DNA of 24,000 nucleotides from Bacillota bacterium (GCA_035254305.1 DATFAS010000077.1:1-24000), one strand, 5' to 3'. Numbered from the stretch's first letter, positions 1,949 to 16,448 are shown. Translations and numbers: made by a program. Notes: generated by a model not told the origin, from the letters alone.

Positions 1949-3064
1949 CTATTTAAGATTCTCTGGATTTAATACCTCCAGCTCAGGAACAACAAATCGC
2001 CCATCCTTACGAATTAGACGATTATCGAACCAAATTTCTCCTCCACCATATTCAGGTCTTTGGATAAATACAAGGTCCCAATGGATACTTGATACATTCC
2101 CATTAGAAGCCTCGTCATAGCATTGTCCTGGGGTGAAGTGAATGGATCCATCAATTTTTTCGTCAAACAGGATATCTTTCATGGGCTCACGAATGAAGGG
2201 ATTAATCCCAATCGCAAATTCTCCTACATATCTTGCACCCTCATCGGTGTCGAATATCTTATTGATGCGCTCCGTATCATTAGCCGTTGCCTCTATTACT
2301 TTTCCGTTTTCGAAACGAAGTTTTACATTTTCAAATACAAAGCCATTGTATGGGCTTGGTGTATTATACGAAATCACTCCATTTACACTTTCGCGGACTG
2401 GTGCTGTATAGACTTCCCCATCCGGGATATTGAGCTGACCGTCACATTTGATTGCCGGAATCCCTTTGATAGAGAATTTTAAATCTGTTCCTGGTCCCAC
2501 GATTCTAACCTGGTCTGTTTTATTCATTAGTTCAACAAGTCCGTCCATAGCTTTTGACATTTTGCCATAGTCCATAGTGCAAACATCAAAATAGAATTTC
2601 TCAAACGCTTCCGTACTCATTGATGCTAATTGTGCCATGTTCGGATTTGGATAACGTAGAACGACCCACTTTGTCTTTTTAACCCGAATCATCGAATGCA
2701 CGGTATGATTATAATATTTGTTATAAAGCTTTAATTTCTCATCGGGAACATCCGATAACTCATAAATATTTTGCCCACCGCGAACTCCTATGTATGCTTG
2801 CATCATGGTCATCTGATTGGCATCAAACTCAGCCCATGTTTTGATCTGTTCTTCCGTTGCTTCTAGGAGTAGCTCCCGGGTAATTTGGTTATCACGAATA
2901 TTAACAAATGGACGCCCGCCTGCCTTGTGAACCTTTTGAACGAGTGCTCTGACAAGTGCATTCTCAATCCCAAACGCCTCAATTAAAACATTCTCACCAG
3001 ACCCAACCCGAGTGGAATAATTAACAAGTACGTCAGCTAAACGTTCTATACGTGCATCTAACAT
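1949..3064 (-). CDS. ampS: Aminopeptidase, peptidase family M29 (AmpS/PepS type)
   Basis: 371-aa ORF. MLDARIERLADVLVNYSTRV..., the overall length, and ...GEFAIGINP...DEKIDGSIHFTPGQ...HWDLV match thermophilic-metalloprotease (M29) aminopeptidases. A RBS and a terminator are present. Confidence 0.9.
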   Translation of the reverse strand: MLDARIERLADVLVNYSTRVGSGENVLIEAFGIENALVRALVQKVHKAGGRPFVNIRDNQITRELLLEATEEQIKTWAEFDANQMTMMQAYIGVRGGQNIYELSDVPDEKLKLYNKYYNHTVHSMIRVKKTKWVVLRYPNPNMAQLASMSTEAFEKFYFDVCTMDYGKMSKAMDGLVELMNKTDQVRIVGPGTDLKFSIKGIPAIKCDGQLNIPDGEVYTAPVRESVNGVISYNTPSPYNGFVFENVKLRFENGKVIEATANDTERINKIFDTDEGARYVGEFAIGINPFIREPMKDILFDEKIDGSIHFTPGQCYDEASNGNVSSIHWDLVFIQRPEYGGGEIWFDNRLIRKDGRFVVPELEVLNPENLK

Positions 3065-3344
3065 TCTTTTCGCCCCTTTCTTTAAGTTCCACCATAATTA
3101 TACTCTTTTGCCATATAGGACGTAAGTCAAGCATCTTTTCTATTTCTATTTTTTCAATTGTGGAAGATACTAAAATAAGATATAGAATTCCCAAAAATAT
3201 ATAGGATTATCACAAGCCCTTTCCCCCATGCCCAAATTACAAGCAGTCTTTCTCACCTCTACATATATTGTATGATAAGAACCTAACCATTAAATGGAAG
3301 GAAGTTAATCCTAGAAATTTAATTTGGAAGGAGGAAAGACCAGT

Positions 3345-3836
3345 TTGAAGCGCAAACCTATACTGTATAATATGAAGGGTTCTGCTGCTGCTTTCAACCA
3401 TCCTGGGAATTTTTTTGTACCCATTGTTGAGAAAGCAAAGCACAGTGTGATATCAATAGAAACAAAAGATCGCGGAAACAGCCGACAAAGCGATTTCTTA
3501 TTTTCATTCCTTTTTCCTAATAGTGAATCAGTAAGCACAACCAAAAGCTTTGGGACAGGATTTATCATTCATTCCAGCGGCTTTATTTTGACCAGCGAAC
3601 ATGTTGTCCACAATGCACAACAAATCCTAGTCAAACTCTATAGTGGAGAGCAGCGAGTGGCAAAAGTGGTATGGTCTGATGAAAAGAGGGATTTGGCCGT
3701 CCTACAGATTCCTACTCGCAAACCGCTATTCCCCCTCCCCCTTGGTTCTTCCGAAGAAAGTAGGGTTGGGGAATTAGTCATCTCCGTAGGCAATCCGATG
3801 GGTCTTGATCATACTGTAACGATAGAGTGTATATGA
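3345..3836 (+). CDS. 5' segment of a split trypsin-like serine protease gene (S1C/HtrA-like, no PDZ). The authentic coding part is 3345..3821; the last 5 codons (IECI-stop) are read from the inserted element
   Basis: TTG at 3345 lies 10 nt after AGGAGG (3329-3334). Translation contains GTGFIIHSSGFILTSEHVV (catalytic His codon 3600-3602) and KRDLAVLQI (catalytic Asp codon 3690-3692). It ends VGNPMGLDHTVT and then diverges. The catalytic Ser motif is absent from this piece. Confidence 0.85.
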   Translation: MKRKPILYNMKGSAAAFNHPGNFFVPIVEKAKHSVISIETKDRGNSRQSDFLFSFLFPNSESVSTTKSFGTGFIIHSSGFILTSEHVVHNAQQILVKLYSGEQRVAKVVWSDEKRDLAVLQIPTRKPLFPLPLGSSEESRVGELVISVGNPMGLDHTVTIECI

Positions 3837-3882
3837 TCATAGCCAAAAATAAGTGGGGGATTTGTACGAATAAAAATAAACG

Positions 3883-3914
3883 ATAAAAAAACTGAGATAA
3901 TAGGATCTCAGTTT
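3883..3914 (-). terminator. Rho-independent terminator after the HPr gene (end of the mtl-pts transcription unit)
   Basis: Perfect 10-bp stem AAACTGAGAT (3889-3898) / ATCTCAGTTT (3905-3914) with a 6-nt loop. On the minus strand it is followed by TTTTTTT (A-run 3884-3890). Confidence 0.75.
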
Positions 3915-3946
3915 ATGAAAAACCATTCTTATAGATTTTTTACTTT

Positions 3947-4207
3947 CTATTCTACTTCAGTCGTAAGTATTTCTTCTAAAGCAGTAACTGCTTGCTTCTC
4001 ATCAGAACCATTAACAATTAATTTTACTTCTTCACCCTTCTTGATTCCAGCCGCCAGTAATCCCATAATGCTTTTCCCATTTGCTTCTTTCTTATTCGTA
4101 ACTAGTTTGATATCGCTGCTAAAGCTAGTCGCCTTTTGAACGAAAAGTGTAGCAGGACGAGCATGAAGACCATTAGGAAGAGCTATTGTTATGCTTTTTT
4201 CTATCAT
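3947..4207 (-). CDS. ptsH: Phosphocarrier protein HPr (PTS)
   Basis: 86 aa. MIEKSITIALPNGLHARPAT has His15, and GKSIMGL has Ser46. The RBS is AGGAGTGG. Unusually, it lies downstream of ptsI. Confidence 0.9.
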   Translation of the reverse strand: MIEKSITIALPNGLHARPATLFVQKATSFSSDIKLVTNKKEANGKSIMGLLAAGIKKGEEVKLIVNGSDEKQAVTALEEILTTEVE

Positions 4208-4220
4208 TTAAATTCCACTC

Positions 4221-5939
4221 CTATTTTAAAAAATATGTCTTTACGTAAGAAGATACCTCATCAGCCGTATCCATAGATAGGATGTGGTCAATATGAGAAT
4301 CCACATCTCCCTTAGCCATCTGACCAATTTGACTTCTTGCAGCCAATATAGAGGTTGCACTCATACTGAATTCGTCTAGACCTAATCCGATTAATATAGG
4401 GATAGCGATTTCATCACCAGCCATTTCCCCACACATACCTACCCATTTTCCTTCCTGATGCGCAGCCTTAATCACCATTTGTACCAGGCGAAGAATAGCT
4501 GGATTATATGGTTGATACAAATAGGCAACTTGTTCATTCATTCGATCTGCTGCCATGGTGTATTGAACTAAATCATTGGTTCCAATACTGAAGAAATCAA
4601 CTTCCTTACTAAATCGATCAGCCATTACAGCTGTAGCGGGGATCTCCACCATTATTCCAATCTCAAGCTTCTTAGAAACAGCAATTCCTTTCCTGATTAA
4701 TTCCTTTTTTTCCTCTTCAAGGATTTCCTTGGCTTTCCTAAGCTCCCCTAAAGTAGAAATCATAGGGAACATAATCTTGAGATTTCCATAGGCACTCGCC
4801 CTAAGTAATGCCCGCAACTGGATACGGAATAACTCCTGTTGGTCCAAGCATAAACGGATAGCTCGGAAGCCTAGGAAAGGATTAAGTTCTTTCGGCAGCT
4901 CCATGTAAGATAACTGCTTATCTCCACCGATATCTAGTGTACGGATCACCACTGGCTTATCGCCCATTTGCTCTACAACAGATTTATAAGCTTGAAATTG
5001 TTCTTCTTCAGAAGGGAACTCATCTCTTCCCATATATAGGAACTCTGTGCGAAATAGCCCGATTCCTTGTGCTCCGTTTTCAAGAACAGCTACAACATCT
5101 TCCGGTCTTCCAATATTCGCTGCTAATTCAACGCTATGTCCATCCTTTGTAACCGAAGGAGAATTCACCAATTTGGCAAGCTTAGCTTTTCTTAATTCAA
5201 AGTCAGCTTTCTGCTCTTGGTATTCCACGATTTCATCTTCTGTTGGATCGATAAGAATAAGCCCATTAATCCCATCCAAAATAAGCTGAGTGCCCGCTTG
5301 AATTTCTTCTGTTCCACTCTTAGTACCCACAACAGCCGGAATTTCTAACGAACGGGCCATAATAGCTGAATGGGAGGTCCGCCCCCCTATATCAGTAACA
5401 AACCCTTTTACATATTGACGATCTAATTGAGCTGTATCAGATGGGGTTAAATCTTCAGCAATAAGAATAACCTCCTCAGATAAATTGCTCAACGAAGAAT
5501 ATTCTAAACCAAGAAGGTAGTGCAGTACTCGTTTCGAAATATCCCGAATATCTGCTCCACGTTCCTTCATATACTCATTATCCATATTCTCAAACATTTC
5601 AATATACATTTGAGAAACATCATTTAATGCCGACTCTGCATTCACTCTTTCACTTCTCATTTTCTCATTAACCGCATCAAGAAGTTCGGGATCGTCTAGA
5701 ACCAGGAGATGAGCACTAAAAATAGCTGCTTTCTCAGGGCCCATCTCCGCCTGTACTTTATCTCTTATCACGATTAAATCTGCCTTTGACTTCTCAATAG
5801 CTTCTTGCAACCGTTTCATTTCTAAAGAAACATCTTCAACCGTTTTCGTTTCAATCATAAGCTTCGGTGTTTTTAACAGGATTGCCTTCCCTATCGCAAT
5901 TCCTGAAGAAGCTGCAATCCCATACATTTTCTGCGACAA
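4221..5939 (-). CDS. ptsI: Phosphoenolpyruvate-protein phosphotransferase (PTS Enzyme I)
   Basis: 572 aa. It has the [21 protein letters not shown] phosphohistidine motif, and the PEP-utilising C-terminal domain ...GMCGEMAGD.... It has a TTG start 8 nt after GGAGGGG. Confidence 0.95.
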
Positions 5940-5951
5940 GATCTTCCCCTC

Positions 5952-7109
5952 CTATTTCACTTCAAGTTTTCGAAGATCATCGACTTGTTTCATCACAATG
6001 GAAAAGAGAGGGTGATCAACTGGAATTTGCGTATACTTACGGATGGTCTCCTCCATTCCTACCTCTCTAATGCTATTTTGAATTTCCACTGCTTCTGGAT
6101 CGCCAGGATAATCGAATAAAAGAGCACCCGCAATTCCTTTTGCCAGATGTATAGGAGTAATCCCATGTTCAAACGCCTGCATAGCTGGTCCTACCAGACG
6201 ATCATTCGGAGATAGCTTGCGTATGGGAGAACGTCCAACTCTGATCAATTCGTCCGATATAAACGGATTTTGGAACCTATTCATGATTTTATCGGTGTAT
6301 TCTAAATGCTTCTTTTCATCAAATTGATGCTTTGCTTTAAGAAGCTGTCCAGTTTCAAGCAATGTCTGTCTTACGCTATCAACAATGTTTTCATTCTTCA
6401 TAGCTTGATCAATAGTCTTTAGGCCATGTTGGTAACCTAAGTAAGCAGTAACTGCATGCCCTGTATTTACTGTAAACAACTTCCGTTCAATATAAGGGGT
6501 TAAATCCCTGACAAAGGTAATTCCTTCAATCTTAGGAACAGGACCAATAAATTGAGATTCATTAACAACCCACTCATAAAAAGGCTCAACTGTCACAAGT
6601 AATTTATCATCATGATTTTGAAGAGGAACAATTCGATCAACAGCCGCATCTGGAAAGCCAATTTGCGCCATTACCTTAGCTTTAACCGCTTCTTCAATAT
6701 TTTCCAAAACATAGGATTTTAATTGTGTACTTCCACCAACCATATTTTCGCAGGCAATCACATTCAAAGGCTGATCGCTTTTACCGATTCGCAACGAAAT
6801 TCCTTTGGCAATAACCGGTGCAATATACTTAAGAATATTAGGACCGACAGCAGTAGTAACAAGGTCTGCATTAGCAATAACATTGGCTACCGCCTCTTCA
6901 TCTTTCCCAGAAATAGCTCGTACACCTTGGATGGTGAACGTCTCTTGCCCCATATCTGCTAACCTAACTTGATATTCTTTGCGGGAACTGATCTCATTGA
7001 CTAGCTCTTGATTGACATCTACAAAACACACTTCATATCCAGATTGGTATAGTAATTGTCCAATGAACCCTCTTCCGATATTTCCAGCCCCAAAATGAAT
7101 CGCCAGCAT
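5952..7109 (-). CDS. mtlD: Mannitol-1-phosphate 5-dehydrogenase
   Basis: MLAIHFGAGNIGRGFIG NAD-binding N-terminus, about 385 aa. I prefer ATG 7109, which starts 1 nt after the mtlF stop with GAGGG upstream, over the longer track start at 7193, which would overlap mtlF. Confidence 0.9.
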   Translation of the reverse strand: MLAIHFGAGNIGRGFIGQLLYQSGYEVCFVDVNQELVNEISSRKEYQVRLADMGQETFTIQGVRAISGKDEEAVANVIANADLVTTAVGPNILKYIAPVIAKGISLRIGKSDQPLNVIACENMVGGSTQLKSYVLENIEEAVKAKVMAQIGFPDAAVDRIVPLQNHDDKLLVTVEPFYEWVVNESQFIGPVPKIEGITFVRDLTPYIERKLFTVNTGHAVTAYLGYQHGLKTIDQAMKNENIVDSVRQTLLETGQLLKAKHQFDEKKHLEYTDKIMNRFQNPFISDELIRVGRSPIRKLSPNDRLVGPAMQAFEHGITPIHLAKGIAGALLFDYPGDPEAVEIQNSIREVGMEETIRKYTQIPVDHPLFSIVMKQVDDLRKLEVK

Positions 7110-7110
7110 A

Positions 7111-7548
7111 TTACATCCCTCTTTCAAAAATGTCGATAATTTCTGCTTCTGACTGGGCCTTAACAATATCCTCAATATTTTTTTCTTCCGCACAAACCAA
7201 AGCGATATTCGATAACAGCTCTAGATGCTCGTCTCCAACGGCTGCAATTCCAATTAAAAGATAGGCTACATTCCCCTCTCCAAAATCCACACCTTTTGGA
7301 AATTGAACAACGGAAATCCCAGTTGATTGAATCCAGCTTTTAGAATCATTTGTTCCATGAGGAATCGCCACACCGTTGCCTATATAAGTTGTAAGCAATT
7401 CTTCTCTTTCCTGCATCTTCCCAATATATTCTTCTGAGACATGCCCTGCTTCCACTAGTAAGTTCCCAGCTAGTTCAATGGCTTCTCTTTTATTTGAAGC
7501 ATAAGCATTTAGCTTAATTTTTTTTGGTGATAGTACTGTCTGTGTCAT
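7111..7548 (-). CDS. mtlF: PTS mannitol-specific EIIA component
   Basis: MTQTVLSPKKIKLNAY...GNGVAIPHGT (phosphorylatable His). About 145 aa from ATG 7548, with GGGAG 9 nt upstream. The track start at 7614 is an unsupported extension. Confidence 0.9.
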   Translation of the reverse strand: MTQTVLSPKKIKLNAYASNKREAIELAGNLLVEAGHVSEEYIGKMQEREELLTTYIGNGVAIPHGTNDSKSWIQSTGISVVQFPKGVDFGEGNVAYLLIGIAAVGDEHLELLSNIALVCAEEKNIEDIVKAQSEAEIIDIFERGM

Positions 7549-7627
7549 GATGATCTGCTCCCTTTCCTTAAACAAAAGTATATTATCTATTGTTGACATT
7601 ATTAAATATAGCATCTCTTACAATTAA

Positions 7628-7656
7628 AATATAACCTTTAATATTAACATTTTCAA
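7628..7656 (-). promoter_or_regulatory. Candidate sigma-A promoter inside the mtlA-mtlF spacer
   Basis: Read on the minus strand: TTGAAA (7656-7651), a 17-nt spacer, then TATATT (7633-7628). It lies in a very AT-rich spacer, so chance matches are likely. Confidence 0.3.
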
Positions 7657-7723
7657 CAAAACTAAATATAAAACAGTAACAAAACATGTTGCCAAAATTA
7701 AATTTAATATCCCGTGCCCAACC

Positions 7724-7755
7724 AATAAGAAACGCTAGTTTCTAAACTAGCGTTC
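7724..7755 (-). terminator. Terminator-like hairpin immediately after mtlA
   Basis: 11-bp stem AACGCTAGTTT (7731-7741) / AAACTAGCGTT (7745-7755) with a 3-nt loop. It is followed on the minus strand by the weak U-tract TCTTATT. Confidence 0.4.
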
Positions 7756-7761
7756 GCCATA

Positions 7762-9198
7762 TTATCCTAAACGTTTTACCAATTCATCATATTTAGGGCT
7801 ATTTAAGAAATTTTCTACAGAAATATGTTCCACTGATGGGGCCTTAGCCTTTGCTCGTTCTGTAAGAGACTTATGAGTAATAACAATATCTGCATCACTA
7901 GGTATTTCATTTATAGCTGTATTGATTACAGTAATGTCCAAACCGGCATCCTTGACTTTCTTCCGTAGAATAGAAGCTCCCATAGCACTAGACCCCATTC
8001 CTGCATCACAAGAAAAGACGATTTTATTCACCGGAGTAGCCGCACTTGCAACTACTGCTTCCTCTTCCTTATTAGCTACAGATATTGCTGCTTTTCTTCC
8101 TTTAATCGATTCCATTTTTTCTGTTGCCTTCTCTAAATCATCATCTTCCACAGCTTGATTAGTCATCTTAAGTAAAGCTGAAGCAATTGCAAACGATACA
8201 CCCGTAGCAACAACCACCCCTGCTAACACTGGCAATAAACCACCTTTAGGTGCCATAGCCATTAATGCAAAGATACTTCCTGGTGATGGAACTGCAACTA
8301 ATCCTGCGTGAAGCAGTTGGAATGTAAAGGTCCCTGCAACCCCTCCACCAATCGCCGCCAAGATCAACCGAGGATTCATCAATATATAAGGGAAGTAAAT
8401 TTCGTGAATACCACCAAGAAAATGAATGATAATCGCACCTGGAGCAGACTGCTTCGCTGTTCCACGACCAACCAACCAATAGGCTAATAAGATTCCAAGT
8501 CCTGGACCAGGATTTGGTTCTAATAAGAAGAAAATAGATTTTCCTGCTGTTGCAGCATCCTGTAAACCTATAGGGCTTAATACCCCATGATTAATGGCAT
8601 TATTTAAGAAGAGAACCTTTCCTGGCTCAATGAATACATTCGCTAGGGGAAGTAACCCGGCATGTACAATTGCCCCAACCCCAGCAGCCAATAGCTTACT
8701 AACCCCTTCAACAACCGGACCCACTAAACTAAAGGAAAGAAGGGCAAGAATCGCTGCTATAATACCCGCTGAAAAGTTATTGACTAACATTTCAAAGCCA
8801 GATTTAACTTTTCCCTCAATCGATTTATCAAATTGTTTGATCACCCATCCACCTAGCGGACCCATGGCCATTGCGCCTAAAAACATAGGGATATCGGTTC
8901 CAACAATAATACCCATTGTGGCAACAGCCCCTACGACCCCTCCTCTTGTATCATGAACCATCTTCCCGCCTGTATATCCAATCAACAATGGGAGTAAATA
9001 AGTAATCATGGGTCCAACTAGTTTAGCTAGATGCTCATTAGGAATCCAACCAGTCGGAATAAATAATGCCGTAATAAACCCCCAAGCAATAAACGCTCCG
9101 ATATTAGGCATAACCATCCCACTTAAAAATCTACCGAACTTCTGAATACGGACACGTAACCCTACAGATTCTGTGTTTCCTGCTGCAGTACCTTGCAT
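7762..9198 (-). CDS. mtlA: PTS mannitol-specific EIICB component
   Basis: 478 aa. It has the ...[20 protein letters not shown]... EIIC membrane domain, and the C-terminal EIIB motif [20 protein letters not shown] with the phospho-Cys. The RBS is GGAGGAGG. Confidence 0.95.
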
Positions 9199-9260
9199 AA
9201 ATGTGCCTCCTCCAAAATTGAATTTGTTGCCATTTTTTCATTTTATTTTTCCTTGAATCA

Positions 9261-9289
9261 AATATAAACCGTTTTCATTAGGTTATCAA
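9261..9289 (-). promoter_or_regulatory. Candidate sigma-A promoter of mtlA, with an overlapping cre-like site (9264..9277)
   Basis: Read on the minus strand: TTGATA (9289-9284), a 17-nt spacer, then TATATT (9266-9261). TGAAAACGGTTTAT matches the cre consensus TGWAANCGNTNWCA at 12 of 14 positions. Confidence 0.45.
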
Positions 9290-9306
9290 CAGAATGAAAA
9301 CAAGGT

Positions 9307-9329
9307 TTCGTCCATCATGATGTTGACAA
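9307..9329 (-). promoter_or_regulatory. Possible MtlR operator upstream of the mtlA -35
   Basis: TTGTCAACATCATGATGGACGAA on the minus strand loosely resembles the TTGNCACA-N4-TGTGNCAA type operator reported for Bacillus/Geobacillus MtlR. That consensus is recalled from memory. Confidence 0.25.
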
Positions 9330-9367
9330 ATTTTAATTTGTTCAAAGGATTGGAGGCTTGACTTGTC

Positions 9368-11455
9368 CTATTGCATTAAGTCGTAGCAGTATTCATACAG
9401 TTTTTTCGAAAAGTAATCTGCAATGATTTTGGTTTCTTGAGTTTTAAGAGCATCTATCGTTTCATCGTCAATTAACAAGGCACTAATATGACTTAGCACC
9501 TCTAGACCCTCTTTTGTTATCTCCTTCGGACCCAAAAGCATTACAATATTTTCAATCTCAATTTGTTTATTTTCCATGGATCTCATCCATATTGGCTTCA
9601 TTAAATGATGGATTGTAAAAGAAACCTGTGTCATTTGATCATTTCTTCCATGGAATAAAGCCAATCCCGTATTCGGGATTCCAATCCCTGATAATTTTTC
9701 CCTTTCTAATAATTGTTTTACAACTTTCTCTTTATTTTTTATTATTTTCTTTTGGTGCAATAAATTGCATATATGATTTATTATTTCTTCTGTATGTTCA
9801 TAAGGGATACTGATTGTTGGGAAATCAAAGCCTTCAATAATGTCGATGATATGGTGGAAATAACTTTTCATGGATTTCAACTTCTCAAGGGGATTATTTT
9901 GAAGTTTAGGTTTTAATTGCTCAAGGTCTGAACGATGAACCTTAATCCCTCTCATATATAATTTAATTTTTTGGATATCTTCCTTTGTAAGTAAAGGGCT
10001 AACCAATATATATTTATTTGCTTCTATAAGCAATGGAATCGTGGAAATAATCATGTCGTATTCCCTTTTAGGGATGTGATCAATATCGAATAAGGAAACA
10101 TTTCTTATTTCCACTATTTCAGGTATTTCCTTTTCAATCCGAGTTGCCAAAATTTTAGAAGATCCGATCCCACTTGAACAAACAATTAATGCCCTGTAAT
10201 CCCACTCCTTCTCGCTTGTCCTCTCGAGTGCTGCACCAAAATGCATCACTAAGTAACCCGTCTCCTCTTCTGGTACATCTATATTTGAAAACACTACTTT
10301 AACTGCCTCTTGGATCACTCGAAACAAATCTCCATAATTTGCTTTAATCTGATCCAACAGAGGGTTCCTAATTTTCATGTTTCTTTGAATTCTAAATAAG
10401 GCCGGTTCCATATGTGTTAACAAACCGTACAATAAAGATGAATCACGGCTGAACTGGGTATCTAACTTATCTTCACAATAGCGAATAAACTCCATAATTT
10501 TTGCCACAAACTCCGCATTACTAAATTGCAAAGGATCATTCTGGGAATTACGAAGCTTAGCCCCTCGCAGATGCATGGTTATGTATCCGATTTCATCTGC
10601 TGGAATCTCCATTTGAAATATCATTTCTAATCTTTCTAGAATTTGCGCAGCCACTTTGTATTCTTGTGTCCCTTTAAGCTCTTGCAGGTAATTTTCGTCA
10701 AACTTAATTCGTTCTCCCTTTTTTATTCGTTCCATGGCTAGCGCAAGATGTATCACCAAACCGATATAGGCACTATCAGCTAAAGGATATGGCCACTCCT
10801 TCTCAAGATTGCGCAGTGCATTTTCGACCATAATTAGCTTTTCTTTTTCAATAAGTCCGAGTAGACGTTCCGATATCGAATCAATATTTCGTGATGACTT
10901 TCCCTGAATATTCTCTTTGATGAGGCCGATTAATTCTAACTCATTTAAGTGATCTGAAATAAGGTTACTAATTGCTTTTCGTTTGAACGATTCCTTCCCT
11001 TGTAGCTCTACACCATAACCTCGTTTTCGAATCAAGGATAAATCATATTTTTGAATCCAATCCTCCAGATCATCCAAATCATGACTAATCGTTGCTGGTG
11101 TTACCTTAAGATCATAAGCTAAAGAAACTAATTTAATAGGCTCAGTAGAACCAAGTAATAAGCAAAGGATCATTACTTTTCTCTCATCAGCTGTAAAATT
11201 TAACGTAGTTACATTGATCAGAGATAACCGTAGCTCTTCCTTAGCATCAAGGTCCCCTTCCATCAGAATACCGACACCCGCACGTTTAACTAATTTCAGA
11301 TGATATTGCTGGAGGAAAATCTCTATTTCTTCTAATTCTCGATGGATCGTCCTTGAGCTGACTTCAACCTCATCAGCGATTTCCTTAACTGTAATCCCAT
11401 TTTCATGGTCTAATAAAATATCTAAAATCATCCTTTGCCTAGACGAAATATTCAT
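9368..11455 (-). CDS. mtlR: Mannitol operon transcriptional activator MtlR (BglG/PRD-family; HTH, two PRDs, EIIB-like and EIIA-like domains)
   Basis: 695 aa. It has the N-terminal HTH MNISSRQRMILDILLDHENGITVKEIADEVEVSSRTIHRELEE, PRD-type histidine regions (ITMHLRG, LVMHFGA), the EIIB-like segment ALIVCSSGIGSSKILA, and an EIIA(Mtl)-like C-terminus (LALFHGR). Confidence 0.9.
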   Translation of the reverse strand: MNISSRQRMILDILLDHENGITVKEIADEVEVSSRTIHRELEEIEIFLQQYHLKLVKRAGVGILMEGDLDAKEELRLSLINVTTLNFTADERKVMILCLLLGSTEPIKLVSLAYDLKVTPATISHDLDDLEDWIQKYDLSLIRKRGYGVELQGKESFKRKAISNLISDHLNELELIGLIKENIQGKSSRNIDSISERLLGLIEKEKLIMVENALRNLEKEWPYPLADSAYIGLVIHLALAMERIKKGERIKFDENYLQELKGTQEYKVAAQILERLEMIFQMEIPADEIGYITMHLRGAKLRNSQNDPLQFSNAEFVAKIMEFIRYCEDKLDTQFSRDSSLLYGLLTHMEPALFRIQRNMKIRNPLLDQIKANYGDLFRVIQEAVKVVFSNIDVPEEETGYLVMHFGAALERTSEKEWDYRALIVCSSGIGSSKILATRIEKEIPEIVEIRNVSLFDIDHIPKREYDMIISTIPLLIEANKYILVSPLLTKEDIQKIKLYMRGIKVHRSDLEQLKPKLQNNPLEKLKSMKSYFHHIIDIIEGFDFPTISIPYEHTEEIINHICNLLHQKKIIKNKEKVVKQLLEREKLSGIGIPNTGLALFHGRNDQMTQVSFTIHHLMKPIWMRSMENKQIEIENIVMLLGPKEITKEGLEVLSHISALLIDDETIDALKTQETKIIADYFSKKLYEYCYDLMQ

Positions 11456-11573
11456 TTAACTATTACTCCTTATATCCTGATATTCTTTACTGTTATTCTT
11501 ATCGTATATCCCAATTATTAAGTTTACACTAGGAATTCGTCATTCACGAACCTCTAAGGTTAAACCTATCCAT

Positions 11574-11607
11574 GAAAAAACACCACATTCCAAAGAAAAT
11601 GTGGTGT
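11574..11607 (-). terminator. Rho-independent terminator after hom
   Basis: 10-bp stem ACACCACATT (11580-11589) / AATGTGGTGT (11598-11607) with an 8-nt loop. It is followed on the minus strand by TTTTTT (A-run 11575-11580). Confidence 0.75.
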
Positions 11608-11657
11608 TTAAGCCTATCAAAGTCATTTTTCAAATGACCACGAGGTTTAAATCCAAG

Positions 11658-12809
11658 TTATAATCGACAACCAATAATATCTCTAATAATAGGTATTTCT
11701 CCCTTACCCTCTACGGATAATTTGTACTTTTCAACTTCCTCAGCCGGAACAATTTTTCCATTCAACCATTGGTATGAAGATGGCTTACGGTCATAGCTAA
11801 TTTGAATGAATTCCTTTTGATCGTGATCTTGAATACTTGATGATAAGGTATATAAGCTAACTAGATCTTCTAGTATAGCACTAGCTGTTGGTAACGAGCC
11901 TGCCCCTGCTCCAACAAAGGTTAATTCTCCAGCCATATCTCCCGTTACTGCAATGGCATTTAAGACACCATTGATGCTAGCTAGAGGATGATCGTTTGCA
12001 ATTAGTTTAGGGGAAACCTCAAGACGAATGGTATGATGATCCTCCAACTCAACAGAAGCTAGAAGCTTTATCTTATACCCAAGTTCATGGGCTTGTTTCA
12101 GCTCCTCAGCAGTCACCGTTTCTATCCCTACTCGATACACTTTTTCTAACTCTGGTTCAACTCCGAATGCAAGCTTTGTAAGGATGGCTAATTTGTATAA
12201 CGTATCATAGCCACAGATATCTGCTGTCGGATCAGCTTCGGCATATCCTTTAAGCTGTGCTTCTTGAAGAACCTGTTCGAATGATGCCCCCTCATCCAGC
12301 ATCGAGGTTAAAATATAATTGGTTGTGCCATTCACAATTCCGTGTATAGATTGAATATCATTGCATTGCAAATTGTTTCGGAGGGTTTGAATGATGGGAA
12401 TGGCCGCACCTACACTAGCTTCGAAAAAAATCTTAACCCCTTGACGATTCGCTAGCTGTTGCAGCTCTGCCCCATGCTTAGCAATCATCGCTTTATTGGC
12501 AGTAATCACATGACATCCTTGTTCAATGGCCCATTTCACATACTCATAAGCTGGGTAGGCCCCAGCTAAGGATTCAATCATAACATTAGGTCGTTTTGCC
12601 ATTACATCTTTAAAGGAATCAGTCAACAAGGAAGAAATATCAGGAATATCGATATCCCTTCTTTTCATCATCTCTTTCACTAAAATGTTCTGTATCTCTA
12701 CTTTTTTATGTAAACGTTTTTCGATTTTCTGTTGATGGTGATAAAACCTCTGAACTACACCAGACCCTACTGTACCTAATCCTAGAATAGCTATCGATAT
12801 CTTTTCCAT
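11658..12809 (-). CDS. hom: Homoserine dehydrogenase
   Basis: MEKISIAILGLGTVGSGVV NAD-binding N-terminus, ...ANKAMIAKHG...FEASVGAAIPII...GIVNGTTNYILT...AEADPTADI.... ATG 12809 lies 8 nt after AAAGGGGGA; the alternative ATG is 12815. The track start at 12857 would run into the riboswitch terminator. Confidence 0.9.
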   Translation of the reverse strand: MEKISIAILGLGTVGSGVVQRFYHHQQKIEKRLHKKVEIQNILVKEMMKRRDIDIPDISSLLTDSFKDVMAKRPNVMIESLAGAYPAYEYVKWAIEQGCHVITANKAMIAKHGAELQQLANRQGVKIFFEASVGAAIPIIQTLRNNLQCNDIQSIHGIVNGTTNYILTSMLDEGASFEQVLQEAQLKGYAEADPTADICGYDTLYKLAILTKLAFGVEPELEKVYRVGIETVTAEELKQAHELGYKIKLLASVELEDHHTIRLEVSPKLIANDHPLASINGVLNAIAVTGDMAGELTFVGAGAGSLPTASAILEDLVSLYTLSSSIQDHDQKEFIQISYDRKPSSYQWLNGKIVPAEEVEKYKLSVEGKGEIPIIRDIIGCRL

Positions 12810-12837
12810 TTTCATATTCCCCCTTTGTTTATCACAC

Positions 12838-12998
12838 AAAAAAACCCTCTTCAACAAGAAGAAGGTTCTACAGCCCGATCCATTCTTCTTATCTATCAGA
12901 GCACAATTGCTCTGCAGGAATTAGCACCTTACCAATATCAATCGGTCGGTTGCCGGGTTTCATAGGGCCAGTCCCTCCACCACTCTAGATAAGAATTA
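12838..12998 (-). promoter_or_regulatory. SAM-I (S-box) riboswitch with intrinsic terminator, in the hom leader
   Basis: The minus strand reads TTCTTATCTAGAGTGGTGGAGGGACTGGCCCTATGAAACCCGGCAACC...GGTAAGGTGCTAATTCCTGCAGAG...GATAGATAAGAAG. These are the conserved S-box core blocks with P1 CTTATC/GATAAG. The terminator AACCTTCTTC-TTGTT-GAAGAGGGTT plus TTTTTTT follows. Confidence 0.88.
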
Positions 12999-13011
12999 TT
13001 AAATTATGTGT

Positions 13012-13040
13012 ATAATATAGCAAAATCGCATAGATGTCAA
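13012..13040 (-). promoter_or_regulatory. Sigma-A promoter driving the S-box-hom transcript
   Basis: Read on the minus strand: TTGACA (13040-13035), a 17-nt spacer, then TATTAT (13017-13012). It sits about 15 nt upstream of the riboswitch. Confidence 0.7.
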
Positions 13041-13070
13041 AAACAAATATTAAAATAACTTAGAAAACCT

Positions 13071-13108
13071 ACTACAAAAAAATAAAACCTGCATCTTCAT
13101 TTGCAGGT
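13071..13108 (-). terminator. Rho-independent terminator overlapping the stop codon of the 51-aa ORF
   Basis: Stem ACCTGCA (13087-13093) / TGCAGGT (13102-13108) with an 8-nt loop. It is followed on the minus strand by TTTTATTTTTTTT. Confidence 0.65.
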
Positions 13109-13252
13109 AGTCTTCCTAATAAACTGCCTATATAAAGATTCCGTCATATATCTTTTCCAATCATCGAATCCGTCTTTTGTAGCTTGTTTTTCTGCACGTA
13201 ATACACGAATTGTTCCATATTTCCCCTCGATCACCTTCAAGAGCTTACCCAT
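13097..13252 (-). CDS. Uncalled small basic protein (51 aa), divergent from the recombinase gene; candidate recombination directionality factor
   Basis: ATG 13252 lies 8 nt after AGAGAGG. Translation is MGKLLKVIEGKYGTIRVLRAEKQATKDGFDDWKRYMTESLYRQFIRKTTCK (13 K/R against 6 D/E). It has its own terminator. It falls below the ORF-track length cutoff. Confidence 0.4.
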   Translation of the reverse strand: MGKLLKVIEGKYGTIRVLRAEKQATKDGFDDWKRYMTESLYRQFIRKTTCK

Positions 13253-13386
13253 TCCAAACACCTCTCTTGAATTCAGCCTATTCTTGTAAACTGCCTATTA
13301 TGCTTGGGTGGAGTGGGTTATTAGATGGTTATACTTTAATCATTTCTAGCCATATGGTATGTATAAGAACCAATTGGAGGGGACAT

Positions 13387-14988
13387 ATGAAGCTGCCTGA
13401 ATGGGTCGAACAGATTATTTGCTACCTCCGTCGTAGCAGACAAGATATCGAGAAGGAAAGGAAGACCGGAGAAGACACCCTTGCCCAACAGAAGCAAATC
13501 ATGGAGAGAGTTTTGGCTGACTATAACCTCCCCTATCAAGTATTTGAGGAGATTGGAAGCGGAGATAAAATTGAAACAAGACCTGTGTTCTGTGCCGTAT
13601 TAGATCTGCTTGAGGAAGGAAAATACAAGGCTATAGCTGTCCGGGAACTGAGCCGTTTAGGGCGTGGTAGCTATACAGACATGGGCCGGATCTATGACCT
13701 AATCATTCAAAAGGATATATTAATTATCACTCCATACAAAATATACAATCCAACCAATCACGCAGACCTAAGGCAAATCCGTTTTGAGCTTTTTCTTTCT
13801 CGTGAAGAATTTGAAACCATTAAAGAAAGATTAATGAGTGGAAAAACAGCATCTGCTATGCAAGGAAAGTGGTCTTCAGGAGGAACAGCCCCCTTCGGAT
13901 ATAGAGTGAATGACAATACCCAAAAACTCGAGATCTATGAGGATGAAGCAAAAATTGTTCGTATGATCTTTGATTTATATGTTTACGGGCTTGAAGGTAA
14001 AGAAAAAGGATTCAGAGCAATAGCAACCTACTTAACTAGAAATGGGAACCCATCTCCAAGTGGGATGAATAATTGGAATGTCAGCATGGTAAAGAAAATC
14101 CTCATTGAAAAACAAGAACTATATGCTGGGTCATTCTTGTTTGGGACGACCAAAATGGTGAATGGAAAGAAAATAAAAAAACAAAAAGAAGAATGGATCA
14201 TTGTCGGGAATTCCCATCCAGGAATTATTAATGAAGAGATGCTAGAAAAGGTAAAAAAGAAGCATCAATTGCTTTACAAAACACGAACAAAGGTAGATTT
14301 TAATACCTCAGAGCTAGCAGGGCTTCTAATATGTTCGAAATGTGGTAGGAAAATGATTAGGCAAGCTAATTATCGTGAATACATCTCCAAAAAAACAGGA
14401 GAAATCACCATCCACAGCAAAGAAACCCTATGGTGCAATACGATCGGTTGTACTTTCGTCAGCTATCGGGCAGTAGAAGAAGCACTCCTTGAATTTTTGG
14501 CTACAATCGGGCATTTAAAAGATGAAGATTTTCAAGTGTTCATCCAACAAACACAAGAGAAACATAATGTAGATTTACACGGAGAAGAACGAATTCAACT
14601 AGCTACAGAAACAAAGAATCATTTAATTAAAAAACTTGCTTTCATTTATGAAAAATTTGAGGAAGGAATCTATTCTAAGGAAGAATTCATTACAAGACGC
14701 GAAGGCATCAACCAGAAAATTGGGGAATTAGAAAAGACCATTCGGCTTCTTCTAAATGTAGAATCACCAGCTCGCAAGCTGCAAGTGGATATAAACCAAA
14801 TGAAACAAATCCTACTGTCAGTATACAGAACATATCGAACGATTGAGAATACAGAAGAAAAAAATCGAATTCTTCATGGCATTATTGACCACGCCGTATT
14901 AGAACTGACTGAAAAAGTAAGAGGGAATAAACCCAGCAGATTTAACCTTGATGTTTATTTTCGCATGGAAGATTTCCTCATTCTATGA
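13387..14988 (+). CDS. Large serine recombinase (resolvase catalytic domain, recombinase domain, zinc ribbon and coiled-coil)
   Basis: ATG 13387 follows GGAGGGG. The N-terminus has ICYLRRSRQDIEKERKTGEDTL with the catalytic Ser codon at 13435-13437. It also has ...RELSRLGRGS..., the recombinase domain GGTAPFGYRV, the zinc ribbon CSKCGRKM...CNTIGC, and a coiled-coil-like C-terminal region. It is 533 aa with no disruptions. From memory, the N-terminal motif resembles SprA-type recombinases of SPbeta-like elements. Confidence 0.95.
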   Translation: MKLPEWVEQIICYLRRSRQDIEKERKTGEDTLAQQKQIMERVLADYNLPYQVFEEIGSGDKIETRPVFCAVLDLLEEGKYKAIAVRELSRLGRGSYTDMGRIYDLIIQKDILIITPYKIYNPTNHADLRQIRFELFLSREEFETIKERLMSGKTASAMQGKWSSGGTAPFGYRVNDNTQKLEIYEDEAKIVRMIFDLYVYGLEGKEKGFRAIATYLTRNGNPSPSGMNNWNVSMVKKILIEKQELYAGSFLFGTTKMVNGKKIKKQKEEWIIVGNSHPGIINEEMLEKVKKKHQLLYKTRTKVDFNTSELAGLLICSKCGRKMIRQANYREYISKKTGEITIHSKETLWCNTIGCTFVSYRAVEEALLEFLATIGHLKDEDFQVFIQQTQEKHNVDLHGEERIQLATETKNHLIKKLAFIYEKFEEGIYSKEEFITRREGINQKIGELEKTIRLLLNVESPARKLQVDINQMKQILLSVYRTYRTIENTEEKNRILHGIIDHAVLELTEKVRGNKPSRFNLDVYFRMEDFLIL

Positions 14989-15024
14989 GATCTTCTTTTT
15001 GGCAACTATCTGCTACATCCTTTT

Positions 15025-15261
15025 ACGAAAGGAATCATCAGTGCAAAAAACCGTCCCGTGAAGATCTCCGGTAAATTATATGAGGATATCATTCAAACAG
15101 ATTGTGCAATTAACCCTGGAAATAGTGGGGGGCCATTAATTAATCTGAACGGTGAAGTTATTGGTATGAATGCCTTTATTATTAAGAACAATCAAGGGCT
15201 GGGTTTTGCTGTAGGGATCGACAGTATTAAGGCGCAAATTGGCAGATACATTCATGAATAG
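15025..15261 (+). CDS. 3' segment of the split S1C serine protease gene (carries the catalytic Ser)
   Basis: The frame, open from the junction, reads [51 protein letters not shown]...[12 protein letters not shown]. The Ser codon is at 15124-15126. No RBS or plausible own start lies at the junction. The track's GTG at 15058 is internal. Confidence 0.85.
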
Positions 15262-15290
15262 AAGGTCAATGATTCCATTGGCCTTTTCTT
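15262..15290 (+). terminator. Terminator of the protease gene
   Basis: Stem AAGGTCAATG (15262-15271) / CATTGGCCTT (15276-15285) with one mismatch and a 4-nt loop, followed by TTTTCTT. It starts directly after the TAG stop at 15259-15261. Confidence 0.6.
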
Positions 15291-15298
15291 ATCAGCAT

Positions 15299-15607
15299 CT
15301 ACATCCAAGATTCTCCCCAATGCTGAATAGCTTGTATAACTGGTTCCAGGCTTTTTCCTTTTGACGTTAGTTCATATTCAATCCTTACGGGTGTCTCAGG
15401 GTAGACTCTGCGAGTAAGAACCTGTGCATCCTCTAGCTCCTTCATTCTCTCCGAAAGCACACGATCACTCATTTCCGGTATCTGTTCCTTTATATCCTTA
15501 AACCGGCGAGGTCCACCAAGCAAAACACGTATTATTAAGCCTGTCCATTTTTTTCCTAGTAATTCTATTGCTGCCTCATAACGTGGACACATGGAGGAAT
15601 AATCCAC
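15299..15607 (-). CDS. HxlR-family (MarR-like winged-helix) transcriptional regulator
   Basis: 102 aa. CPRYEAAIELLGKKWTGLIIRVLLGGPRRFKDIKEQIPEMSDRVLSERMKELE...VRIEYELTSKG is a classic HxlR signature. It has a GTG start 7 nt after AGGAGG. Confidence 0.85.
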   Translation of the reverse strand: MDYSSMCPRYEAAIELLGKKWTGLIIRVLLGGPRRFKDIKEQIPEMSDRVLSERMKELEDAQVLTRRVYPETPVRIEYELTSKGKSLEPVIQAIQHWGESWM

Positions 15608-15678
15608 TGTAGTCCCTCCTTCCTGTTGCTTTATTCTTATTATACTCCATCCCTAGTTAATTGTAAAAAGTAAGGATT

Positions 15679-15707
15679 AAAAAGAAAGCGAGCCGATTAG
15701 GCTCGCC
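15679..15707 (-). terminator. Terminator after the 48-aa ORF
   Basis: Stem GCGAGCC (15688-15694) / GGCTCGC (15700-15706) with a 5-nt loop. It is followed on the minus strand by TTTCTTTTT. Confidence 0.55.
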
Positions 15708-15710
15708 ATT

Positions 15711-15857
15711 TTATTCTTTACTCTTTTTGAATGCAATGATATAAATTTCTTCATTTTTTTCTTTATTCATGGATTGCTCGGCTGTCTGTAACAAATTTAG
15801 TTGGTCATAATTAAGATTGGCTATTGGCAGCTCATCTAAGTGATTGAACTTTTCCAT
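15711..15857 (-). CDS. Uncalled small acidic protein (48 aa), hypothetical
   Basis: ATG 15857 lies 8 nt after AAGAGGAG. Translation is MEKFNHLDELPIANLNYDQLNLLQTAEQSMNKEKNEEIYIIAFKKSKE. It is followed by a terminator. It falls below the track cutoff. Confidence 0.5.
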   Translation of the reverse strand: MEKFNHLDELPIANLNYDQLNLLQTAEQSMNKEKNEEIYIIAFKKSKE

Positions 15858-15910
15858 TTGATCAACTCCTCTTTGTTATCGGTTCATAGTGTATGTAGTC
15901 ACCGTCGTTT

Positions 15911-16312
15911 TTACAATACTAATTGTGATTCCATAATATTTCGTACGGTGGAAATATCTGCTGGAGCCCAATTCAGTTCCCATAGTTGATCAATAGGTAC
16001 CCATCTTAATTCCTTATGCTCTAACGCCTTTGGCGATCCTTCCACAAGTCTTGATTTATATGTAGTGAGATGAACCTCGATTTCCGGATAAGGATGGATC
16101 ACATCAGCTATTTGATCCTCTACTTGAATAAGGCAATCCAGTTCTTCCTTGATTTCTCGTATTAAGGCTTGCTTTGGATTTTCTCCCGGTTCAATCTTCC
16201 CTCCTGGAAACTCCCAAAAACCCTCCATAGACCTATTTGGCCCTCTAAGCGCACATAGTATCCGTTTGTTCTCATCATAGATGACTGCCCCAACAACATC
16301 GATTCGTTTCAC
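15911..16312 (-). CDS. NUDIX hydrolase (MutT-like nucleoside triphosphate pyrophosphohydrolase)
   Basis: 133 aa. The Nudix box is GFWEFPGGKIEPGENPKQALIREIKEELD. It has a GTG start 7 nt after GGGAGG. Confidence 0.85.
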   Translation of the reverse strand: MKRIDVVGAVIYDENKRILCALRGPNRSMEGFWEFPGGKIEPGENPKQALIREIKEELDCLIQVEDQIADVIHPYPEIEVHLTTYKSRLVEGSPKALEHKELRWVPIDQLWELNWAPADISTVRNIMESQLVL

Positions 16313-16413
16313 TCAACAACCTCCCTTTTAACCAGCCGAATTCATGAGTATGAGTAGAAAACTAATATGAATTAGTATGTCGGAAAAGGTAAAAATAATG
16401 AACATAAACTTTC

Positions 16414-16448
16414 AACAGTAAAAGAGATCGGTAAATGAACCGATCTCT
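16414..16448 (-). terminator. Hairpin at the end of lutC
   Basis: 9-bp stem AGAGATCGG (16423-16431) / CCGATCTCT (16440-16448) overlapping the lutC stop codon. It is followed on the minus strand by TTTACTGTT, a modest U-tract. Confidence 0.45.

Follow-up and report, generated by a model that had tools for sequence, protein, structure and literature searches.

This locus raises the question of why a gene for a serine protease should be split by a block of predicted mannitol utilization genes together with a large serine recombinase gene. It lies in a 24,000-nucleotide stretch (hereafter, the window; Bacillota bacterium, GCA_035254305.1 DATFAS010000077.1:1-24000) that comes from a 25.7-kb contig of a metagenome-assembled genome (MAG) labelled "Bacillota bacterium." By sequence comparison, the flanking genes are closest to those of Ammoniphilus (76 to 78% identity), an endospore-forming genus that is the nearest named one to the window and that also includes the obligate oxalotroph Ammoniphilus oxalaticus. 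The proposed answer is that positions 3821-15026 probably constitute a non-phage sporulation gene-intervening element of the same kind as skin, SPbeta, and gin. Genes were called from a listing of open reading frames (ORFs) and from Pfam, NCBIfam, PHROGs, and Rfam matches, and their start codons were refined by profile alignments and ribosome-binding sites.

The interrupted gene encodes an HtrA-like protease of the S1C family without a PDZ domain. Its 5' part (3345..3821, plus strand; Pfam Trypsin_2) specifies residues 1-159 with the catalytic His86 and Asp116, and its 3' part (15028..15261, plus strand; delineated by alignment with intact orthologs) specifies residues 160-236 with the catalytic Ser192; as these residues are placed by the alignment, the insertion parts the His/Asp pair from the Ser. 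The ORF that carries the 5' part continues into the element up to a stop codon at 3836 and is listed as a 170-aa product, the first two-thirds of a trypsin-like protease; the 5' part is 100% identical to the NCBI protein P0012. Joining position 3821 to 15028 restores the frame exactly and gives a 236-aa protein that is collinear from end to end with intact proteins of 236 to 238 aa at 76 to 83% identity (83% with the metagenomic protein P0001, 78% with the A. oxalaticus protein, and 77% with that of Ammoniphilus sp. CFH 90114). A metagenome scan with the joined protease retrieved 14 family loci (L099-L112), all of them unbroken at the window's site, and a search of genome contigs with the protease alignment picked up, through generic HtrA motifs, unrelated Do-type proteases of all phyla.

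The limits of the element (3821-15026, 11.2 kb) were set by alignment with an empty site. In blastn, window positions 3380-3820 correspond to 10033-10479 of the metagenomic contig L003, and window positions 15025-15252 correspond to 10478-10705 of the same contig, which places the break to the base. L003 and the three other contigs that carry P0001 (L004-L006) have the same neighbors as the window, namely, the M29 peptidase gene, an intact protease gene, hxlR, a NUDIX gene, lutCBA, and moaC. The protease gene is likewise intact in L099 and L100, at the window's attachment (att) position in L002, and in the named Ammoniphilus, Aneurinibacillus, and Brevibacillus genomes. The first-pass annotation had delimited the block as 3822..15024, which is essentially correct, and had treated it as a bounded element as opposed to a rearrangement fixed everywhere at this position; because empty sites exist in L003-L006, L099, L100, and the named genomes, that view stands.

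The attL core (ACGA, 3819..3822; defined by comparison with empty sites) and the attR core (ACGA, 15025..15028; defined by empty sites and related loci) are all that the two ends have in common, and no long terminal direct or inverted repeats were found around the element beyond these 4 bp. Sites of large serine recombinases are expected to be symmetric and to have a central dinucleotide. About the A|C of the core, 19 of 30 positions of the reconstructed attP are symmetric, and the crossover dinucleotide is likely the AC at 3819-3820. The attL junction was recovered at 100% identity in a separate assembly (Logan SRR5177929, contig L001).

Next to attR, with its stop codon ∼40 nt away, lies the gene for a 533-aa large serine recombinase (13387..14988, plus strand; Pfam PF00239 Resolvase, PF07508 Recombinase, and PF13408 Zn ribbon). 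Its best phage relatives are the YokA/SprA proteins of SPbeta (38 to 41% identity over 98% of the length, E = 3e-101). The resolvase, recombinase, and zinc ribbon domains and a long C-terminal region are present, and the YLRRSRQD motif is invariant in the alignment of the family. By these features the protein belongs to the SprA family, and it is predicted to act on the flanking att sites.

The closest relatives of this recombinase in the protein collection are 64 to 67% identical to it (P0122-P0124) and are followed by hundreds of proteins from spore formers at ∼45%; a search of genome contigs with the recombinase found no relative. In the metagenomic loci L007 (66% identity), L009 (64%), and L010-L012 (48%), the recombinase stop codon is followed within 10 to 40 nt by a 3' fragment of the protease gene, which begins at the same codon, T159|K160, as in the window. 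This attR layout (recombinase stop codon, P arm, and the same protease codon) recurs in three lineages besides that of the window, and in a neighbor-joining tree the protease-associated recombinases form one clade, apart from a prkA/spoVFB clade and an SprA/spsM clade. The DNA on the 5' side of the recombinase gene is different in each case: a 51-aa ORF and an S-box-hom unit in the window; a membrane protein gene, two DUF3231 genes, and an EAL remnant in L007; and an unannotated 131-aa ORF with no Pfam match in L010. Such variation next to a fixed recombinase and target codon indicates that the cargo turns over while the recombinase and its site are conserved. The four lineages of this recombinase clade share one protease codon and differ in cargo.

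Two details of these relatives concern the cargo side. In L007, the open frame upstream of the recombinase runs at 1597-2001 into a remnant of 135 codons that matches an EAL domain, which is why the gene caller reported a 668-aa "EAL-recombinase" fusion; the remnant is probably decayed cargo. The three separate assemblies L010 (1-1047), L011 (1-1033), and L012 (1-1047) all break ∼1 kb on the 5' side of the recombinase gene, inside the 131-aa ORF, which hints at a repeat there or at cargo that varies between strains.

The same protease gene is interrupted at another position in L002. There (positions 3-1215), a protease 92% identical to that of the window is unbroken at the window's att site and is cut ∼80 codons earlier (GF|ILTSEHV, about residue 80), next to a large serine recombinase that is 25% identical to the one in the window and whose gene is truncated by the end of the contig. 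As read from these junctions, one protease gene has been hit independently by two unrelated recombinases. Repeated independent targeting of a single gene is a known pattern for sigK and gerE (PMC5595907). Another metagenomic protease allele, in L110 (780-840), lacks ∼34 residues (66-99), including the catalytic His, through an in-frame deletion; the L002-type insertion site falls within the deleted segment. This allele could reflect an assembly error or be a scar left when an element was lost imprecisely.

More distant members of the recombinase family have been found at other split genes. A search of the viral database IMG/VR with the single recombinase gave no close relative, and a search with the family alignment gave 36 prophage-type contigs with recombinases 38 to 47% identical to that of the window, mostly at contig ends (the L179 recombinase reaches 53% in its best aligned segment). 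The L096 recombinase (47% identity) adjoins a 296-aa N-terminal fragment of PrkA that ends in ...RFALISADE (L096 11600-12490), and the same PrkA fragment lies on the 3' side of the recombinase in the IMG/VR contigs L144, L147, L150, L154, L156, L166, and L171. These prophage-type elements, whose recombinases are 42 to 47% identical to that of the window, all break prkA at a single conserved position, ...GNFKAGRFALISADE (L166 has FALIYADE). The L161 recombinase (43% identity) adjoins a DpaB/SpoVFB fragment (residues 1-110 of 196), and in the SPbeta-like contigs L168 and L178 the 3' part of SpsM follows the recombinase. Rearrangements in the mother cell have been published for both spsM and spoVFB (PMC4191935, PMC10747680), and prkA is a sporulation gene (PMC9512850, PMC4415436); a literature search found no paper on the interruption of prkA, or of an S1C protease gene, by intervening elements.

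Two further observations bear on whether the split protease gene is still in use. First, in every protease comparison, the proportion of nonsynonymous differences (pN) was 0.04 to 0.21 against a synonymous proportion (pS) of 0.70 to 1.0 (saturated), including the comparisons of split with split alleles (the window with L009, L010, and L007), and the five independent split alleles contain no stop codon and no frameshift. Judging by this pattern, both halves of the protease are under strong purifying selection. Low pN and open frames would be expected if the gene were still used, i.e., restored in some cells, and simple inactivation is hard to reconcile with them unless all the insertions are very recent.

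Second, the gene is preceded by a putative mother-cell promoter of the sigma-E/K type, CAGTCTTTCTCACCTCTA-CATATATTG (3244..3270, plus strand; a consensus motif with a −10-like CATAnnnTG at 3262-3270). When the 220 nt upstream of each start codon were searched with sigma-E/K consensus letters, 13 of the 15 family loci had exactly one CATAnnnT[AG], 15 to 131 nt before the start (55 to 131 nt in 12 of them). Shuffled upstream regions gave a mean of 2.2 loci with this motif, none of 2,000 shuffles reached 13, and the motif precedes 13% of 158 other ORFs from the same loci. The two-block pattern AC-N16-17-CATAnnnT[AG] occurs in 7 of the 15 loci, compared with a shuffle mean of 0.31 and with 3.8% of the 158 control ORFs. 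Promoters of sigma-E and those of sigma-K have the −10 element in common, and a single base tells their −35 elements apart (PMC517825). We infer that the protease gene is a mother-cell gene with a promoter of the sigma-E/K type.

The recombinase gene itself is preceded by a strict sigma-K-type motif, AC-N16-CATATGGTA (13333..13359, plus strand), which ends 28 nt before its ATG codon and is one of only two matches to this pattern in the whole window on both strands; the aligned upstream regions of the recombinase relatives are weakly conserved. Divergent from the recombinase gene is the 51-aa ORF (13097..13252, minus strand), which has a ribosome-binding site and a terminator (13087-13108). Being the sole unassigned gene of the element, it is the default candidate for a directionality factor, an as yet unproven assignment. 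In the known systems, sporulation control falls on either the recombinase or the directionality factor (PMC5595907).

Taken together, these data are consistent with the following scheme. The protease gene would be expressed in the mother cell from its sigma-E/K-type promoter, and during sporulation the recombinase, probably with a small directionality factor, would recombine attL with attR at the AC dinucleotide. The element would be released as a circle and the His/Asp half of the protease rejoined to the Ser half, while the forespore chromosome would retain the element, which would ensure its vertical inheritance. The assignment of the locus to the gene-intervening elements draws on the clean in-frame insertion with syntenic empty sites; on an SprA-like recombinase whose 40 to 47% identical relatives stand at split mother-cell genes; on the use of one protease codon in four lineages and the attack on the same gene by a second, unrelated recombinase; on the sigma-E/K-type motif upstream of the protease, the purifying selection, and the endospores of Ammoniphilus; on the sigma-K-type motif 28 nt before the recombinase start; and on the identity and operon signals of the cargo.

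Several points weigh against this assignment. The role of the protease in sporulation is a presumed one and is not known from experiment. No direct sign of excision was found: the searched collections contained neither an intact protease gene 100% identical to the joined one nor an attP circle. The sigma-K-type motif was not found upstream of the recombinase gene in six relatives, and the window's protease promoter has CA, not AC, in its −35 element, as do the other Ammoniphilus-type loci. The promoter statistics count related sequences as independent, so that the motif probabilities are too optimistic, and the neighbor-joining tree of the recombinases carries no support values. The 51-aa ORF has no family match in NCBIfam or PHROGs and no homolog beside the related recombinases, and no directionality factor was identified. 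Finally, the wider recombinase family serves ordinary prophages too, so family membership alone is no proof of developmental control.

Between the att sites, the predicted cargo begins with a mannitol operon of the phosphotransferase system (PTS) on the minus strand. It comprises mtlA, encoding EIICB-Mtl (7762..9198; NF011663, 750 bits); mtlF, encoding EIIA-Mtl (7111..7548; PF00359); mtlD, encoding mannitol-1-phosphate 5-dehydrogenase (5952..7109; NF002652, 527 bits); ptsI, encoding the 572-aa enzyme I (EI; 4221..5939; TIGR01417, 791 bits); and ptsH, encoding the 86-aa HPr (3947..4207; PF00381 and TIGR01003, 93.6 bits versus a cut-off of 47.9). These genes are joined by short gaps or overlaps and are followed by a predicted intrinsic terminator (3889..3914, minus strand); ptsI lies between mtlD (upstream) and ptsH (downstream), the reverse of the usual ptsH-ptsI order. 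HPr retains the His15 and Ser46 motifs and passes the HPr family cut-off without reaching the equivalog cut-offs. A sigma-A-like promoter of mtlA, TTGATA-17-TATATT (9261..9289, minus strand; consensus match), overlaps the TGAAAACGGTTTAT sequence, which resembles a catabolite-responsive element (cre); a search with the strict cre consensus gave a single match, inside mtlR and at chance level. Upstream of mtlA is mtlR itself (9368..11455, minus strand), which encodes a PRD-containing activator with two helix-turn-helix (HTH) regions, two PRDs, and an EIIA-like domain according to Pfam. All six components (EI, HPr, EIICB-Mtl, EIIA-Mtl, MtlD, and MtlR) are present and intact, and the matches of EI, HPr (at the family level), MtlA, and MtlD are above the curated NCBIfam cut-offs. 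By gene content the PTS module is formally complete, its substrate specificity being predicted, and the MtlR-controlled operon should work without any host PTS protein.

Also on the minus strand is hom, the gene for homoserine dehydrogenase (11658..12815; NF004976, 400 bits), preceded by a SAM-I (S-adenosylmethionine-sensing, S-box) riboswitch aptamer (12886..12995; Rfam RF00162, 97.6 bits versus a gathering score of 44.4, full model 1-108). A terminator (12841..12869) is located between the aptamer and the hom start at 12815, and a sigma-A-like promoter for the riboswitch and hom, TTGACA-17-TATTAT (13012..13040; consensus match), precedes the aptamer; hom would be expressed from this promoter under the control of the riboswitch attenuator. 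The riboswitch is the sole RNA that Rfam detects in the window. The Hom protein matches its profile up to position 323 of 430, and its last ∼60 residues do not resemble the ACT region at the C terminus of the profile. The enzyme may be a paralog that is dedicated to methionine and insensitive to feedback, as would fit SAM-riboswitch control.

No genes of phage or conjugative type accompany this cargo. In the PHROGs scan of the element, the recombinase ("integrase") was the only functional match and no structural or lysis protein was matched; the lone hit in the packaging category was a weak one between the HTH region of MtlR and a small-terminase family (E = 6e-4, 20.8 bits). Pfam found no relaxase, type IV secretion system, capsid, tail, or lysis domain in the ORFs between the att sites. 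A prophage or prophage remnant was rejected on the lack of phage-type structural or lysis genes in PHROGs, and an integrative conjugative or mobilizable element on the lack of any such Pfam domain. From its gene content, the cargo appears to be a working metabolic unit and not a set of phage remnants, and it probably helps prevent loss of the element. On all these counts the first-pass annotation read the locus well: its gene list (mtlR, mtlA, mtlF, mtlD, ptsI, ptsH, S-box-hom, the recombinase, and one small ORF) is correct in identity, position, and intactness, the mannitol PTS module with its own EI and HPr is complete by the matches given above, and phage and conjugation genes are absent from the element and from the DNA adjoining it.

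That annotation also spoke of a transferable cassette, and a recently acquired, self-sufficient catabolic cassette, one that brought a mannitol PTS with EI and HPr into a PTS-less lineage and so supplied its sole ptsHI copies, is a possible but rather unlikely origin of the block. The six PTS components do lie in one block, the nearest named genus does contain an obligate oxalotroph, related elements carry other cargo, and the 120 best relatives of EI include no Ammoniphilus or Aneurinibacillus protein, though the proteases of these genera were found at 76 to 78% identity. The composition of the cargo argues the other way. The GC content is 0.383 in the element and 0.399 in the flanks, with overlapping ranges for third codon positions (GC3); relative synonymous codon usage correlates at r = 0.93 between cargo and flanks, compared with 0.84 between one half of the flanks and the other; tetranucleotide frequencies correlate at r = 0.97; and the GC skew of the element keeps the sign of the neighboring genes. 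The comparisons of codon usage, GC3, and k-mers with the flanks were thus negative as tests for foreign cargo: the cargo is no less similar to the flanks than the flanks are to themselves and cannot be told apart from them, and it is either long resident or derived from a very similar genome.

Neither did any of the searched collections hold a near-identical copy of the cargo, and the element carries no transfer genes. The best non-self relative of EI, at 72% identity, is encoded by a lone ptsI in GCA_036676475.1 (L093), followed by Fictibacillus and Brevibacillus proteins at 67 to 69%; exact look-ups in the contig collection with EI and with MtlR produced no match, nor did a search of JGI metagenomes with MtlR. 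The EI search against plasmids matched 375 records, mostly megaplasmids or chromids. The best plasmid match, a 35-kb Priestia "plasmid," was considered as a precedent for a mobile EI gene and rejected, as it looks like chromosomal DNA, with glcT-ptsG-ptsH-ptsI and also the rib operon. With a host-like composition and no close copy, recent transfer of the cargo is unsupported.

The first-pass annotation had posed, as the alternative to a transferable cassette, that these might be the only ptsHI copies in the genome, so that excision would delete central carbon-signaling genes. The two scenarios are not exclusive, because EI and HPr genes brought into a PTS-less host would also be its sole copies, and the predicted deletion was overstated: elements of this class are excised in the terminal mother cell, where the excised circle stays, while the spore genome keeps the element (PMC4191935). 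It is doubtful, and quite unlikely on present indications, that the element is the lineage's only source of EI, HPr, the mannitol PTS, and perhaps hom within an otherwise oxalate-specialized, PTS-less group; a literature search found no paper on PTS genes in Ammoniphilus. If so, an excisable element would be the chromosomal home of core carbon-signaling genes, its cargo would widen the host diet and make the element effectively impossible to lose, and excision in the mother cell would put ptsHI on a nonreplicating circle just as the protease gene is restored. With an oxalotroph in the nearest genus, a self-contained "PTS in a box" serving as a diet extension is a plausible, if conjectural, idea.

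The block could also be an ordinary integrative genomic island, i.e., a mannitol fitness island whose recombinase used a site in a dispensable protease gene and inactivated it, with no developmental excision. Some of the observations listed above, namely, the lack of an excision product, the use of SprA family recombinases by plain prophages, and the poor conservation of the recombinase promoter motif, agree with this explanation, as does the fact that most loci of the protease family are intact, which shows the insertion to be optional. Still, it is unlikely, since five independent split alleles show neither stop codons and frameshifts nor relaxed selection (pN ≪ pS), two unrelated recombinases have hit the same protease gene, sister recombinases split prkA, spoVFB, and spsM, and a sigma-E/K-type promoter motif is conserved upstream of the target gene. 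An assembly chimera, with a false join between a metabolic region and the protease gene in the MAG contig, is highly improbable: the source is indeed a metagenome-assembled contig, and related metagenomic contigs often break near the recombinase, but the independent Logan assembly gives the same attL, the attR architecture recurs in three other lineages, the reading frame is exactly restored, and attP is symmetric about the core.

The surroundings of the element are variable as well. Upstream of the 5' part of the protease gene lies the gene for an M29 peptidase (aminopeptidase; 1949-3064, minus strand; ORF listing with Pfam and NCBIfam scans), and downstream of the 3' part are hxlR, the NUDIX gene, lutCBA, and molybdenum cofactor genes. 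The M29 gene alone is inverted between the window (1949-3064) and L003 (8643-9758), with collinear DNA on either side, and no inverted repeats were found around it in the window. In L003, genes for an SLH-domain protein (10764-12380) and an HpcH/HpaI aldolase (13856-14623) lie on the 3' side of the protease gene and are absent from the corresponding part of the window (15262-16446), which indicates that changes in this neighborhood are independent of the element.

Most accounts of elements that split a sporulation gene and leave it in the mother cell concern decaying prophages; gin is the one known non-phage case. The genes for EI and HPr normally belong to the chromosomal core. If the proposed reading as a gene-intervening element is correct, an element of this class can consist of a recombinase and metabolic operons alone, including EI and HPr genes, and the passage of useful cargo through the spore would explain simply why such elements persist. 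The variation of the cargo at a fixed recombinase and target codon suggests that the recombination module acts as a stable docking platform. The attack of two unrelated recombinases on this PDZ-less HtrA-like protease marks it as a probable mother-cell sporulation gene in Paenibacillaceae, and this recombinase family appears to strike prkA frequently as well.

With regard to its cargo, the element can be compared with the mannitol PTS operons of Bacillaceae, which consist of mtlA-mtlF-mtlD and are governed by the PRD-containing activator MtlR. The same four mtl proteins and a cre-like site at the mtlA promoter are found here; unlike in those operons, mtlD is followed by ptsI and ptsH, in the reverse of their usual order, and the whole set is located inside a predicted excisable element.

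Among the known intervening elements, a close parallel is SPbeta in spsM of Bacillus subtilis, which relies on SprA and the directionality factor SprB (PMC4191935, PMC5499854). The recombinases belong to the same family, and both elements have the recombinase gene at one end beside an att site, a short att core, and an in-frame split of the target gene, in SPbeta a mother-cell gene. However, SPbeta is a 134-kb active phage, whereas the element in the window measures 11.2 kb, has no phage gene, splits an S1C protease gene in place of spsM, carries metabolic cargo, and lacks a recognizable SprB-like factor. In Bacillus cereus ATCC 10987, gerE contains gin, which has a GirC/GirX system (PMC5595907) and is likewise a non-prophage intervening element with a serine recombinase; in another species, an unrelated element interrupts gerE too. 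The gin element differs in having 31 genes, three recombinases, a restriction-modification system, recJ, and a GC content below that of the host, compared with one recombinase, nine genes, and a host-like composition here. A large serine recombinase is also employed by skin in sigK (SpoIVCA/Skr) and by vfbin in spoVFB, where excision restores a mother-cell gene, but these are degenerate prophages, and the genes they interrupt are established sporulation genes, while the window's protease has only a presumed role in sporulation. In the case of yin in yabG of Clostridium botulinum (PMC10747680), the interrupted gene also encodes a protease, and one tied to sporulation; yin, however, is a prophage unique to one strain, and YabG is a cysteine protease unrelated to the S1C family. 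The class that includes skin, SPbeta, vfbin, gin, and yin is already known, and what the present locus would add to it is a new target gene, a new recombinase clade, and a purely metabolic cargo.

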